The position numbers and the translations under genes are program-made. Positions 32,146 through 34,926 of a DNA stretch of 64,000 bases are shown here, one piece after another. Positions within the stretch are counted from its first letter, which is position 1. Every line of letters starts with the position of its first letter. The DNA is from Patescibacteria group bacterium. Lineage in GTDB: Bacteria; Patescibacteriota; UBA1384; XYA2-FULL-43-10; 1-14-0-10-43-13. The DNA is taken from NCBI GenBank assembly GCA_041671645.1, contig JBAZBD010000001.1, positions 799,234-863,233 of the forward strand, read 5' to 3'. The notes beneath the pieces were generated by a model. It did not search any database. It saw only the letters and a program-made list of their open reading frames with translations, and had not been told where the DNA came from.

Positions 32146-33153
32146 ATGGAACAGAAAAAAGTTATATTGACAGGAGACAGACCGACAGGCAAACTTCACC
32201 TCGGTCATTTTGTCGGTTCACTCCAAAATCGAGTCAAATTGCAACATGAGTATGAACAATTCATACTGATAGCCGACCTCCAGGCCCTGACAGACAACTC
32301 TGAAAATCCGGAAAAAATTAGGTCAAATGTCCTCGAAGTAGCCCTAGACTACCTAGCGGTTGGAATAGACCCGGAGATTTCCACAATATGTATTCAGTCC
32401 GAACTGCCCGCACTTTCTGATTTGACAATGTACTACTTAAATCTCGTCTCGCTTGCCCGACTTCAACGCAATCCTACAGTTAAAGATGAAATGAATCAAA
32501 AAGGCTTTGGAGCTGAAGTCCCTGCCGGATTTTTGACATATCCGATCAGCCAAGCCGCCGATATATCTGCATTTAAGGCAACTTTGGTACCAGTCGGCGC
32601 TGACCAGCTCCCGATGATTGAGCAAACCAACGAGATCGTTCGCAAATTTAATCGTGTTTACAATTCCAACGCATTAGTTGAATGTGAAGCACTAGTATCC
32701 GAAACTGGTCGACTTCCTGGTATCGACGGTAGCAACAAGATGTCCAAGTCCCTTGGCAACTGCATATATCTCTCAGATTCAGCTGAGGAGATCAAACAAA
32801 AAGTCATGAATATGTACACCGACCCGGATCACATCCATGTCGAAGATCCAGGAAAAGTTGAGGGGAATACTGTATTCGCCTATCTCGACATTTTTGATGA
32901 AAACAAAGACGAGATCGCGAAATTAAAAGAAGAGTACAAAAAGGGCGGCCTTGGCGACGTAACACTTAAGAATCGTTTGAATGATATTTTGCAGGAATTG
33001 CTCAATCCAATCAGAGCAAAGCGCGAAGAATTGGCCAAAGACCCAGATGCAATTATGAAAATTTTGGAAAAAGGCTCAGAGAAAGCTCGGGCAATTACTG
33101 GCAAAACGTTAGAGGAAATTAAATCTGCGATGAAGCTGGATTATTTCGCATAA
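32146..33153 (+). CDS. trpS: Tryptophan--tRNA ligase
   Basis: Class I signature (TGKLHLGH) and KMSKS. I chose the start at [15 protein letters not shown] with an AAAGGA RBS; the N-terminal extension in the track is unlikely. Confidence 0.9.
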
Positions 33154-33158
33154 GATTC

Positions 33159-33184
33159 AAACGCCTCATATGTCTGAGGTGTTT
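33159..33184 (+). terminator. Hairpin terminator after trpS (variant of the palindromic family)
   Basis: AAACGCCTCA-TATGTC-TGAGGTGTTT, 6 nt after the stop. Confidence 0.6.
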
Positions 33185-33199
33185 CCGATATCCACTTCA

Positions 33200-33228
33200 T
33201 TGATTTTTGAGTCCAAATTTGTTATAAT
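33200..33228 (+). promoter_or_regulatory. Strong promoter ahead of the tRNA-Asp 5' fragment and the GIY-YIG ORF
   Basis: TTGATT (33200..33205), 17 nt including the TGn extension, TATAAT (33223..33228). Confidence 0.6.
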
Positions 33229-33240
33229 CCATTCTATTGC

Positions 33241-33256
33241 GGGGGCGTAGTTTCAG
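33241..33256 (+). repeat. Duplicated 5' end of tRNA-Asp (fragment)
   Basis: GGGGGCGTAGTT(T)CAG matches tRNA-Asp positions 1-15 at 33564..33578: 12 identical nt (13 with the preceding C), a 1-nt insertion, then CAG. Confidence 0.7.
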
Positions 33257-33282
33257 CCAAAGGCTGATCAGCCTCTGGCTGA
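33253..33282 (+). other. Twin tandem hairpins with identical stems in the 5' leader of the GIY-YIG ORF
   Basis: TCAGCC-AAA-GGCTGA is immediately followed by TCAGCC-TCT-GGCTGA. Confidence 0.6.
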
Positions 33283-33294
33283 CAGTTGGAAAAT

Positions 33295-33573
33295 ATGCAT
33301 TTTGTTTATTTCTTAAAAAGTATTACCAACGGAAAGTATTACGTCGGTCAGACAGATCGCGAACCTTCTGTACGTTTACAAGAGCATAATTCTGGCCATA
33401 ATTCATGGACAAAAAAGAATGGCCCCTTCGAACTGATTTACCACGAAAGTTATGCATGCAAAGAAGATGCTAGGAGGAGAGAAAACTTTTATAAATCTGG
33501 TATTGGCAAAAGGGTTATGAAAGCGATAATCGAGATATTTGTTAATAAGGAAAAACCAACTACGGGGGCGTAG
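33295..33573 (+). CDS. Small GIY-YIG (URI-domain) nuclease family protein, 92 aa
   Basis: Begins MHFVYFLKSITNGKYYVGQT, followed by R..EHNSG, PFELIY.E and RRREN. Its stop codon (TAG 33571..33573) lies inside the first 10 nt of tRNA-Asp. Confidence 0.8.
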   Translation: MHFVYFLKSITNGKYYVGQTDREPSVRLQEHNSGHNSWTKKNGPFELIYHESYACKEDARRRENFYKSGIGKRVMKAIIEIFVNKEKPTTGA

Positions 33574-33640
33574 TTCAGTTGGTTAGAACGCCACACTGTC
33601 ACTGTGGAGGTCGCCGGTTCGAGCCCGGTCGCTCCCGCCA
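33564..33640 (+). tRNA. tRNA-Asp (anticodon GTC), CCA encoded
   Basis: GGGGGCG-TA-GTTCAGTTGGTTAGAAC-G-CCACA-CTGTCAC-TGTGG-AGGTC-GCCGGTTCGAGCCCGGT-CGCTCCC-G-CCA. Confidence 0.9.
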
Positions 33641-33712
33641 TATGTTGGTTTTTCCTTAAGAATAATGTCTCTCTAGCAGGTCTGGGGCAGAGGCCCGCCC
33701 ATCCTCGACTGG

Positions 33713-33724
33713 GCTCCCGCCATA
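33713..33724 (+). repeat. Duplicated 3' end of tRNA-Asp (12 nt)
   Basis: GCTCCCGCCATA is identical to 33631..33642 (tRNA 3' end plus 2 flanking nt), 82 bp downstream. Confidence 0.7.
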
Positions 33725-33731
33725 AAAAAGG

Positions 33732-33754
33732 ATAGCTCTTCGAGCTATTTTTTT
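33732..33754 (+). terminator. Rho-independent terminator of the tRNA-Asp unit
   Basis: ATAGCTC-TTC-GAGCTAT followed by TTTTTTT. Confidence 0.65.
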
Positions 33755-33825
33755 GTTGCAGAGCCGTCAAGACTCGCACGAGATTAGCGTATTTGATATA
33801 ATCAAAAAAATAAATTGGAGTTAGA

Positions 33826-34815
33826 ATGTCTGAGCATAATCTTGGCGCGAGTAAAAGCGATACAAAATTTTCAGCATCGGATGAACAAGTTAATCCAATA
33901 CAACCTGGCGGTCCTTTGCCAGACCATATGCTATGGGAAACCAGTGTAGATCAGAATGATCCATCAATAGAATTGGGTATTACAACACCTGATGGCGATT
34001 ATTTTCCATTCGATCATGGCGAATCGCTAATTATGATCATGATGGCAGATGGCCAGAGACAACCATTTGTTAGACTGAAAAGTGGCCAGGAAGTCAGGTT
34101 TGAATCTTGGAGATTATCAAGAAGACAAGAATTTGCTGAAGTATTAGACAATGTCGACGAAGATTATAAGGCAGCATATCTCGCGGCACTGGAAGACTTC
34201 CCCCATCTTGACCAGATGCAAGTCGAATTGGCAACTTCCCAGCAATATCCAAATCTGAAGTATACTGGCGGCTTTTGGCGAAAACCTCAAAGCGACGCAG
34301 ATGCTCCAAAAATTGTTGTTATTATGGGGCAAAATGGGCTATATGAACAGCTACTAATCGATCGAGAGCTCTCGGCCAGAAAAAGTGCTGAGATAATCGG
34401 TATCGATTTCGAGGTGATGAAAGAACACCCAAATATTTTAAAACTTTTTATTTTCCTCCATGAAATCGGCCATGTTGAGGATTATATAACAAACTTTCGC
34501 AAGAAAAGTGAATTAGACGGTTCTGATCCAGTGCAGGCAAAACGAGAAAAACGCAATCGAGAAATGGTCACTTTGCCTATTCCTGGAGTAAGTCCAGATT
34601 TGGCGAGACGAATGTACGACAGCGGAGAGCTCCAAACATACTACGCAAAATATCAACAAAATTACCAAAGGATTAGAGGGTTAATGTCGGTTGAAGAATT
34701 GCTAGATGCCAACGAGATTGCTTACCATGAGCTCCCGTCAGAGAGATATGCTGATCAACGGGCAGGAGAGATATTAAGAAAACATTGGAACGTATTAATC
34801 AATCACACCAAATAG
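33826..34815 (+). CDS. Hypothetical protein with an HExxH motif (possible zinc metallopeptidase-like), 329 aa
   Basis: GGAG RBS. LFIFLHEIGHVEDY, with a later YHELPSERYADQRAGEIL segment. No signal peptide or TM. Confidence 0.6.
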   Translation: MSEHNLGASKSDTKFSASDEQVNPIQPGGPLPDHMLWETSVDQNDPSIELGITTPDGDYFPFDHGESLIMIMMADGQRQPFVRLKSGQEVRFESWRLSRRQEFAEVLDNVDEDYKAAYLAALEDFPHLDQMQVELATSQQYPNLKYTGGFWRKPQSDADAPKIVVIMGQNGLYEQLLIDRELSARKSAEIIGIDFEVMKEHPNILKLFIFLHEIGHVEDYITNFRKKSELDGSDPVQAKREKRNREMVTLPIPGVSPDLARRMYDSGELQTYYAKYQQNYQRIRGLMSVEELLDANEIAYHELPSERYADQRAGEILRKHWNVLINHTK

Positions 34816-34886
34816 TGATGTATTAATTCGAGATAAAAATGTATTCAGACCGATAGTTCTAACTTCCGCCACTATGCCCCGCCGTT

Positions 34887-34926
34887 AAGAATCACCAATC
34901 TTTGTAAAAATTGGTGATTCTTTATT
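34887..34926 (+). terminator. Rho-independent terminator
   Basis: Perfect 13-bp stem AAGAATCACCAAT / ATTGGTGATTCTT followed by TATTT. Confidence 0.7.

Follow-up and report, generated by a model that had tools for sequence, protein, structure and literature searches.

Why a bacterial tRNA gene should be accompanied by partial copies of both its own ends, with a small nuclease gene lying between them, is the question raised by a tRNA-Asp(GTC) locus of a Patescibacteria group bacterium. The locus occupies positions 33200–33754, on the plus strand, of a 64,000-nucleotide (nt) stretch of assembly GCA_041671645.1 (contig JBAZBD010000001.1, positions 799,234 to 863,233), which is the whole stretch analyzed here and is called the window hereafter. 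It contains a stand-alone gene of the GIY-YIG nuclease family encoding 92 amino acids (aa). Comparison with related sequences indicates that the locus very probably represents an insertion into an ancestral tRNA-Asp unit. On balance we lean towards reading it as a site occupied by a selfish mobile cassette, one that resides in structured-RNA genes and moves by break and recombination. The features of the locus are the following:

33200..33228, plus strand: native promoter of the tRNA-Asp, now driving the whole unit (TTGATT, 17-nt spacer, TG-extended TATAAT)
33240..33252, plus strand: first part of the 5' remnant, base −1 (C) and tRNA-Asp positions 1–12, a 13-nt exact direct repeat of 33563–75
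33253..33282, plus strand: twin-hairpin module of 30 nt, TCAGCC-AAA-GGCTGA and TCAGCC-TCT-GGCTGA (inverted-repeat search)
33283..33289, plus strand: second part of the 5' remnant, CAGTTGG, tRNA-Asp positions 13–19, terminating within the D-loop (direct reading and BLAST)
33295..33573, plus strand: stand-alone GIY-YIG nuclease gene, 92 aa (open reading frame list and Pfam PF01541)
33539..33560, plus strand: left arm of an inverted repeat, within the 3' end of the nuclease gene (repeat search)
33564..33640, plus strand: intact tRNA-Asp(GTC), the functional copy (ARAGORN; Rfam, 67.9 bits)
33644..33665, plus strand: right arm of the inverted repeat, whose first bases GTTGGTT equal tRNA positions 15–21 (repeat search)
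33666..33712, plus strand: spacer with no family match, suspected to be a decayed tRNA middle
33713..33724, plus strand: 3' remnant, tRNA-Asp positions 68–77 (GCTCCCGCCA) and the flanking TA, a 12-nt exact direct repeat of 33631–42
33726..33754, plus strand: native terminator, hairpin ATAGCTC-TTC-GAGCTAT followed by T7 (inverted-repeat search)

The 5' direct repeat (CGGGGGCGTAGTT) is exact at 33240–52 and 33563–75 and is continued, on the far side of two adjacent hairpins (TCAGCCAAAGGCTGA then TCAGCCTCTGGCTGA, 33253–82), by CAGTTGG (33283–89), which is separated from the start of the open reading frame (ORF) by AAAAT. Once the 30-nt hairpin pair is left out, the upstream copy is identical to tRNA-Asp at 20 of 20 positions. 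The initial annotation of this locus, made from the letters alone, had described a 16-nt copy of the tRNA 5' end; an exact upstream copy does exist, but its extent is 12 plus 7 nt (positions 1–12 and 13–19), split by the hairpins. The 3' direct repeat (GCTCCCGCCATA) is likewise exact at 33631–42 and 33713–24, and 72 nt separate the intact tRNA-Asp from the 3' remnant. The promoter boxes (TTGATT at 33200–05, TATAAT at 33223–28) are of the sigma-70 type, with a consensus score of 10/12 and the TG present. Together with this promoter, the identical stems of the twin hairpins (33253–82), the 92-aa ORF with its TAG stop inside the tRNA, the intact tRNA at 33564..33640, the 12-nt copy of its 3' end at 33713..33724 and the terminator hairpin with its T-run (33726–54) are all present as first described. 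Judged from the sequence, about 460 nt would lie inside the ancestral unit, with the 30-nt twin hairpin placed after tRNA position 12 and the ORF, a whole tRNA-Asp and the spacer placed after position 19; the original tRNA gene would survive as a 5' remnant (positions 1–19) and a decayed 3' remnant whose last 10 nt are intact.

The earlier statement that chance recurrence of such repeats is negligible holds: in 2000 mononucleotide shuffles the longest upstream repeat was 12 nt against the 13-mer observed and the longest downstream repeat 11 nt against the 12-mer observed (0/2000 matched either), and the four other tRNAs of the window, taken as an internal control, are without flanking copies. 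The same full layout is found in an independent assembly, a 514-bp contig from another study (L001) whose protein is 75% identical, so that an assembly artefact is excluded. A 22-nt inverted repeat (33539–60 / 33644–65), absent from the initial annotation, brackets the intact tRNA with 86% complementarity; its predicted duplex reaches −27 kcal/mol (z = −7.5) in the window and −31 kcal/mol (z = −9.2) in L001, where the core of the repeat (GTTGGTTTTTCCTT) is unchanged. As a family-wide feature a stem around the tRNA had to be rejected, being strong only in the Asp lineage.

The TAG stop codon of the ORF corresponds to tRNA-Asp positions 8–10 (33571–33573). The same entry of the ORF into the tRNA, with termination at the conserved U8-A9-G10 and an unchanged phase with respect to tRNA position 1, is seen in the window, in L001 and in two further loci (L002 and L022), in Asp, Val and Pro hosts; since the phase is shared by these hosts, the junction looks inherited and not random. 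No Shine-Dalgarno sequence precedes the window ORF. That the unassigned segments might match a known structured RNA, as the initial annotation had allowed, was not borne out, an Rfam scan of 33100–33900 at E ≤ 10 returning the tRNA alone, with HPnc0260, PK-repBA and other weak matches far under their thresholds. A tmRNA or a tRNA-like outer RNA was also considered and rejected, as ARAGORN found none, the 3' part, inspected by eye, is without a T-arm, and shuffled sequences fold as well as the spacer does. This spacer (33666–33712), in which Rfam is empty, is probably the decayed middle of the original tRNA. The minimum-energy fold of the locus pairs the 5' copy with the 3' copies, a pairing that duplication alone would produce.

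What did the locus look like before the insertion? A comparison of related tRNA-Asp loci, proposed at the outset as a check, revealed presence/absence polymorphism at one locus, occupied in the window, empty in one relative (L053) and reduced to an ORF-less footprint in two others (L054/L055). In L053, whose TrpRS is 89% identical, the gene order is that of the window (511-aa gene, tRNA-Thr/Gly, trpS, tRNA-Asp, Band_7, enolase), and the interval between trpS and Band_7 holds only a TTGATT-17-TATAAT promoter, the tRNA-Asp and a homologous terminator, without ORF, hairpins or remnants. The intact tRNA-Asp of the window is identical to L053:4561–4638 at 78 of 78 positions, and the promoters share 82% identity over 56 nt, a span that also covers tRNA positions 1–12. 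The hairpin and T-run homologous to those of the window stand directly 3' of the tRNA in L053 and 3' of the remnant in L054. This composition indicates that the L053 locus is the uninterrupted ancestral unit, and it is exactly the promoter-tRNA-terminator unit, with an identical tRNA and nothing else, that had been postulated as the target of the insertion. In L054/L055 (TrpRS 82%) the promoter, an intact tRNA, a spacer (that of L054 alignable in part to the window spacer), a 3' remnant (GGTCGATCCCACCA) and the same terminator are retained and the 5' remnant, hairpins and ORF are missing, a state that is the expected leftover of recombination between the 5' repeats. More distant trpS relatives sought for polarity (L056 and L057) are not syntenic.

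The L001 contig preserves more of the original gene. Its 5' remnant ends at tRNA position 19 (CAGTTAG) and its 3' remnant starts at position 20, with positions 20–29 and 37–68 still present where the window has its spacer, so that the original gene appears to have been split once, in the D-loop. This 19/20 junction is, at the sequence level, the strongest evidence for a single split by a block composed of the ORF, a whole tRNA and the spacer, and it speaks against the earlier proposal that a tRNA end is regenerated at each insertion. The 5' remnant also follows the acceptor-stem change that distinguishes the window from L001.

Is this arrangement found at other tRNA genes? A word-index search for homologues gave only two proteins, and pattern scans based on two proteins were used in its place; they gathered 19 genome loci and 32 metagenome loci, which with L001 and the window amount to 45 distinct ORFs. 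A same-strand tRNA adjoins 27 of the 45, and ten isotypes are represented (Asp, Val, Pro, Ile, Ser, Gly, Tyr, Cys, Glu and Lys). The ORF precedes the tRNA in 22 of the 45, with the tRNA start mostly from 35 nt before to 38 nt after the stop codon, and follows it in five; in three others the contig end carries either a cut tRNA or a tRNA 5' piece with hairpins, three lie within a 16S rRNA gene, and 12 are in other contexts or have no tRNA found, several of them being intergenic and bounded by inverted repeats. The genome records are labeled Saccharibacteria, several other groups of Patescibacteria (candidate phyla radiation, CPR), Gammaproteobacteria, Bdellovibrionales, Ignavibacteria and others. 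Of the 27 tRNA-adjacent loci, 22 have copies of their own tRNA on the flanks of the ORF (E < 0.1), and in most loci these copies are truncated and interrupted by small hairpins. The proposed search for GIY-YIG paralogues beside tRNAs with similar duplications was productive, and the suggestion that the small GIY-YIG protein is a mobile passenger at tRNA genes is supported by a family that stands beside ten isotypes, in several phyla, together with partial tRNA copies.

In the best-preserved loci the remnants are complementary in extent, covering tRNA positions 1–42 and 32–88 in L017, 1–69 and 68–80 in L038, and 8–48 and 40–77 in L049. The ORF and the tRNA are always on the same strand, no Shine-Dalgarno sequence can be seen ahead of any ORF, and in L023 and L012 the ATG of the ORF abuts the tRNA 3' end. 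Remnant and intact acceptor stems differ in L023 (3' strand ATCGTCC vs TGTGTCC) and L026, whereas the window copies are identical. Turnover is also evident from the frameshift in the L026 ORF and from the tandem arrays that occur in L025, L029, L049 and L012. The units of such arrays (L005 vs L029; L025; L049:1830–2040) consist either of a tRNA remnant with hairpins and an ORF or of a spacer, hairpins and a tRNA 3' part; the copy number differs between two samples, and one ORF copy has an internal deletion. At L012:1323–1397 and 1760–1967 pseudo-tRNA-Pro sequences were observed in which a GC-rich hairpin (TGGCGCCGGGGCGCCA or TGGCGCTTCGAGCGCCA) about as long as the anticodon arm takes its place, and one of them is called a tRNA of unidentified type by ARAGORN. 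Among the ORFs nearest to that of the window no recent jump between tRNAs was found, all pairs being 46–76% identical.

The twin hairpins are a conserved part of the unit. Homologous modules in nine related loci adjoin copies of Asp, Val, Pro and other tRNAs, TCAGCCAAAGGCTGA being found beside Asp and Pro tRNAs and TCAGCCTCTGGCTGA beside Asp and Val-type tRNA copies. In the subgroup of the window (nine loci with ORFs 46–76% identical and hairpins in the D-arm or D-loop) 108 of 108 stem cells are paired and compensatory changes occur in 7 of 12 pairs, a value not reached in any of 500 shuffles; in another subgroup, which has its hairpins in the T-loop of Ser and Tyr tRNAs, 97.9% of the cells are paired and compensatory changes occur in 8 of 16 pairs. 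Between the window and L001 the hairpin pair is identical at 25 of 30 positions and the four stem differences are all compensatory (two pair changes in the first L001 hairpin), at a synonymous divergence (dS) of 1.39, where synonymous sites are saturated. This pattern of substitution indicates that the hairpins are a selected, inherited module of the unit. A 20-nt palindrome (CCTGCCTGCCGGCAGGCAGG) is identical across three distant loci, one of them a leader copy of a 16S rRNA gene. Within the window there is no second copy of the module.

The loops of paired hairpins tend to be complementary (ARA vs TYT; ATCC vs GGAT), which makes the structure the same on either DNA strand, and this complementarity hints at a role of the hairpins at the DNA level. 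In the remnants the hairpins are placed at tRNA loop positions, before G18 or after RRTT in the D-arm or D-loop, at TTCG/AATC in the T-loop, and in the anticodon loop, and the intact tRNA copies of the loci inspected never carry them. They could be a substrate of the nuclease, a means of immunity to cleavage or an RNA signal. The T-loop insertion falls exactly at TTCG/AATC in L005, L010, L017, L038 and L043, and TTCGAA is a DNA palindrome. GIY-YIG enzymes typically leave a 2-nt 3' overhang. A symmetric cut of TTCGAA with such an overhang would fall at TTCG/AATC; L039 (TTCAAA) does not strictly fit.

The protein belongs to the GIY-YIG family by Pfam PF01541 (57.8 bits vs a cut-off of 22.6, E = 1.4e-15, residues 1–68). 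The ratio of nonsynonymous to synonymous substitution rates (dN/dS) between the window ORF and L001 is 0.12 at dS 1.39, and in 42 homologous ORFs conservation reaches 98% for Y5, 98% for Y16, 100% for R27, 100% for H31 and 93% for E63, residues which we take, from their positions, to be the equivalents of the catalytic residues of I-TevI. The low dN/dS and the conserved catalytic residues indicate that the ORF is under purifying selection and is a functional gene. The AlphaFold model (predicted local distance difference test score, pLDDT, 86) ranks in Foldseek with 1ZG2 (UPF0213 protein BH0048), the plant Holliday-junction resolvase HIGLE (7WME) and Slx1 (7CQ2/4XM5/6SEH) ahead of I-TevI (1LN0), and UvrC stands, like I-TevI, lower in the ranking; the PDB sequence matches are 1ZG2 (E = 3e-5) and 1YWL. 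Pfam and the model agree in showing a single catalytic domain of 92 aa without an auxiliary DNA-binding domain. The protein is thereby predicted to be a bare catalytic domain from the structure-specific branch of the superfamily and not a homing enzyme of the I-TevI type.

The database family comprises 3405 clusters at E ≤ 1e-3, nearly all of 80–130 aa. Many homologues are annotated with 20–50 aa more at the N-terminus than the conserved start MH(F/Y)(V/I)YF, and these longer N-termini probably arise from gene callers reading through the upstream tRNA remnant and hairpins. A protein look-up gave no record of the exact window protein. Phage or viral relatives of the ORF were not found, neither the 50,697 phage records searched by tblastn nor IMG/VR yielding a match.

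Members of the family are not confined to tRNA genes. In L032, L040 and L042 an ORF (46–49% identical; 1501–1758 in L042) lies within a 16S rRNA gene as a non-intron insertion bounded by inverted repeats, at a site placed by eye in helix 40. The repeat that frames these 16S-inserted ORFs is a perfect inverted one of 16 nt (CCCCGCCCTTTTGGCA / TGCCAAAAGGGCGGGG), and the ORFs come with their own TATAAT-like box. Inverted repeats of the type CCCCGCC...GGCGGGG bound the intergenic copies in L007, L020, L031 and L036 as well as a 147-nt insert without ORF in the tRNA remnant of L012. In L040, shortly after the 16S segment, positions 2298–2376 match the Rfam group II intron D1-D4 family at 40 bits, above the gathering score. 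Upstream of the 16S gene of L042 (98–149) about 34 nt of the 16S 5' end are present as a partial copy, followed by the palindrome CCTGCCTGCCGGCAGGCAGG, 9 more 16S bases and the fold-back CTGGCGG-TT-CCGCCAG. The intact 16S gene starts about 85 nt later (215 onward), an architecture like that of the tRNA loci with no ORF between.

How could such a cassette spread? From the insertion, its recurrence, the covariation of the hairpins and the purifying selection on the ORF we infer workings of the following kind. The Slx1/HIGLE-like minimal nuclease would introduce a break at or near DNA that forms stem-loops, either the loops of tRNA and rRNA genes or the palindromes of the cassette itself. Repair by homologous recombination would use the duplicated tRNA segments as homology and copy the cassette in, and only arrangements that keep one intact tRNA would survive. 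The ORF, devoid of its own promoter and ribosome-binding site, would ride on the host tRNA transcript and be freed by tRNA processing. Recombination between the repeats would remove the ORF, leaving footprints of the L054 type and finally empty sites. Neither an integrase nor an intron ribozyme would take part, to judge from what the locus encodes. A more tentative extension is that the minimal structure-specific GIY-YIG protein and the twin-hairpin palindromes may constitute a new bacterial mobile system without transposase, integrase or ribozyme, which would target loop positions of highly transcribed tRNA and rRNA genes and duplicate the target so that one intact copy survives.

Several observations weigh against a cassette that moves by break and recombination. 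Neither activity of the nuclease nor a cleavage site nor an event of transfer has been seen, and the homologues in different tRNAs are all less than 70% identical, so that no recent jump from tRNA to tRNA was caught. The protein has no DNA-binding domain and is closer to Slx1 than to the homing enzymes of the I-TevI type. The inner, intact tRNA is 100% identical to the empty allele and it is the outer copy that is split and hairpin-bearing; a nuclease recognizing the tRNA sequence would therefore cut the occupied locus too, which makes simple sequence-specific homing awkward. The hairpins of the window are in a strand of the D-stem (between positions 12 and 13) and not in a loop. By TrpRS, L053 is the nearest relative and yet has an empty site, whereas the footprint is found in L054, which is more distant; precise loss or lateral transfer is required to account for this. 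Finally, L042 has a partial 16S copy, the palindrome and an intact 16S gene without an ORF, for a target too long to be carried by a cassette. This case makes it ambiguous which copy is the original, and a mechanism of partial duplication becomes equally possible; in terms of sequence, the 19/20 junction of L001 favors nested insertion and the 16S case of L042 favors duplication of part of the target.

Two other explanations draw on the same structures and are both unlikely, in our estimation to the same degree. The twin hairpins might act as a cruciform substrate that is cut on either side, a hairpin-bounded cassette then joining a similarly cut site through long cohesive ends, again with no transposase or integrase. 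In L017, L038 and L049 the block of ORF, intact tRNA and spacer is indeed flanked on both sides by a unit of tRNA bases, hairpin module and tRNA bases, which resembles a target duplication containing hairpins; the complementary loops give equal structure on both DNA strands, the nearest folds are those of structure-specific nucleases, and the identical 20-nt palindrome recurs in three distant loci, the 16S leader copy included. However, the hairpins of the window and of L001 are one-sided and the right junction is a clean split between positions 19 and 20, a hairpin-bearing tRNA gene would be a dead gene and an implausible standing target, no other copy of the hairpin module is present in the window, and no circular or excised form was seen. 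Alternatively, mobility may belong to the past, and the remnants, the hairpins and the stem bracketing the tRNA would be processing or stability signals for a gene that lacks promoter and ribosome-binding site within a tRNA transcript, with release by RNase P/Z, protection of the mRNA end and acceptor-like pairing of 5' and 3' parts as possible functions. The constant strand of ORF and tRNA, the missing Shine-Dalgarno sequences and the ATG abutting the tRNA 3' end in L023 and L012 would all suit such a role, as would the conservation of the 22-nt stem enclosing the tRNA, which the window shares with L001 despite saturated synonymous sites, one G-U pair in a hairpin stem (L025), the tracking of the acceptor-stem change by the 5' remnant and the pairing of 5' and 3' remnants in the minimum-energy fold. 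Yet most members of the family are without a stem around the tRNA, the 3' remnants are often missing or decayed, that of the window included, the 5' untranslated region and the spacer fold not much better than shuffles, and the complementarity between hairpin loops has no obvious use in RNA; the empty site, the tandem arrays and the spread over ten isotypes are left unexplained.

The other three accounts are far less probable. A neutral local rearrangement, in which slippage or unequal crossing-over partially duplicated the tRNA-Asp in tandem and a small ORF was captured by chance, neither being mobile, would find typical slippage substrates in direct repeats of 12–13 nt and a parallel in the tandem arrays of related loci. 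We regard it as very unlikely, given that the same ORF family and design recur in several phyla, at 16S rRNA as well as at ten tRNA isotypes, that the tRNA contains nothing from which the hairpin module could derive, that compensatory changes attest to the conservation of this module, and that the ORF is under purifying selection. Still less probable is the footprint of a tRNA-integrating island or prophage with a tyrosine or serine recombinase, the comparison drawn in the initial annotation. The 12-nt repeat of the tRNA 3' end and flank resembles an attachment-site repeat, and L054 has a further 17-nt tRNA-Asp 3' fragment beyond the neighboring 329-aa gene; against this likeness stand the absence of a recombinase ORF between or beside the repeats and of an integrase ORF between 31 and 36 kb of the window, the repetition of the 5' end as well as the 3' end, an insert of only 0.46 kb with a whole second tRNA between the remnants, and the failure to find phage or viral relatives of the ORF. 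A functional outer tRNA gene from whose transcript an intron or intervening sequence is spliced out is the least credible of all: group I introns do occur in tRNA-Asp and tRNA-Asn of Patescibacteria, at position 35/36 (PMC13011429), but Rfam returned no intron ribozyme at E ≤ 10, the insertion points (12/13 and 19/20) are in the D-arm and not in the anticodon loop, the outer 3' half is decayed in the window and a second, intact tRNA is present. A group I intron in this tRNA-Asp is refuted by the missing ribozyme core and by the insertion outside the anticodon loop.

The DNA beyond the terminator was also inspected. A 329-aa ORF lies directly downstream (33826–34815), has no match in Pfam, NCBIfam or PHROG and is absent from L053. 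L054/L055 do have the gene, but in inverted orientation together with the DNA that reaches from it to the tRNA-Asp; the additional 17-nt tRNA-Asp 3' fragment is accompanied by a terminator beyond the gene. The 329-aa ORF may be cargo of an older insertion at the same tRNA-Asp. Following it, window 34840–34915 contains a conserved stretch of 45 nt (GTATTCAGACCGATAGTTCTAACTTCCGCCACTATGCCCCGCCG) and then a hairpin terminator, which L054 has too; the minus strand of this region resembles the 5' part of a tRNA (GGCGGGGCATAGTGGCGGAAGTTAGAAC).

The nearest analogues of the proposed tRNA-borne cassette, in logic, appear to be the mobile endonuclease ORFs of fungal mitochondria (Allomyces atp6; Glomus atp6, atp9, cox2 and nad3), which bring along a replacement piece of the gene and leave the native end as a remnant (PMC3630166). 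In both cases an endonuclease ORF (GIY-YIG in atp9) stands in a host gene with a partial duplicate of that gene, the functional copy being part of the transcript. In the mitochondrial genes inserted and native copies differ, as do the remnant and intact tRNAs in L023 and L026; those of the window are identical. Here, by contrast, it is a bacterial tRNA or rRNA gene that is targeted, the duplicate comprises an entire tRNA, both sides bear remnants, the protein is a minimal domain of 92 aa and covarying hairpins are present. The double-hairpin elements of Allomyces mitochondrial DNA may be a further parallel. SegB, a free-standing GIY-YIG homing endonuclease of T4-like phages, resides in a cluster of tRNA genes and is reported to be inherited preferentially with flanking tRNA DNA after break repair (PMC2330249). 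The likeness is that of a GIY-YIG nuclease gene among tRNA genes; the Seg proteins are phage-borne and have a DNA-binding domain, unlike the bare Slx1/UPF0213-like domain found here on a bacterial chromosome, nested in a duplicated tRNA with hairpins. Islands and prophages that integrate into tRNA genes share the partial direct tRNA repeats flanking inserted DNA and differ from the present locus, where there is no recombinase, both tRNA ends are repeated, a complete tRNA lies inside and the insert is below 0.5 kb. The group I introns of tRNA-Asp in Patescibacteria (position 35/36; PMC13011429) are unrelated to the insertion in the window.

GIY-YIG ORFs in non-intron insertions of rRNA genes of Patescibacteria (CPR) have already been reported and were judged to be outside spread by homing (PMC11270868). 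They share with the present family the protein, the lack of a group I or II intron and the bounding inverted repeats, and L032, L040 and L042 are of that type; tRNA genes are not mentioned in that paper, and hence no duplicated target copies are reported there. Prokaryotic Slx1-like GIY-YIG proteins are minimal stand-alone domains, one member being fused to the tRNA G18 methylase TrmH (PMC1564403). The UPF0213/Slx1-like proteins (1ZG2, 1YWL) have the same single domain of about 90–100 aa and are the best matches in sequence and fold, but no link of this group to tRNA or rRNA insertion, partial target duplication or hairpins was found in the literature searched. A full-text search, of incomplete coverage so that an earlier description is possible, returned no account of bacterial tRNA genes that enclose a GIY-YIG gene with hairpin modules. 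What appears to be new is this tRNA-nested form with its hairpins; selfish cassettes that are driven by a nuclease and make up for the gene that they disrupt, and GIY-YIG insertions in rRNA genes, were known.

If the locus is indeed the occupied site of a selfish cassette, bacterial tRNA genes would join the targets of nuclease-driven selfish elements, and harm to the host would be avoided by a spare copy of the split gene, unlike splicing or regeneration of the integrase type. Some of the stand-alone GIY-YIG proteins of about 90 aa, a large orphan family (UPF0213 / COG2827-like), would also gain a concrete role, and the covarying hairpin module is a defined candidate substrate of a minimal nuclease. 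The cassette explains some of the tRNA gene fragments and pseudo-tRNAs that confuse annotation, and the tRNA-nested family places the known GIY-YIG insertions of Patescibacteria rRNA genes within a broader class.

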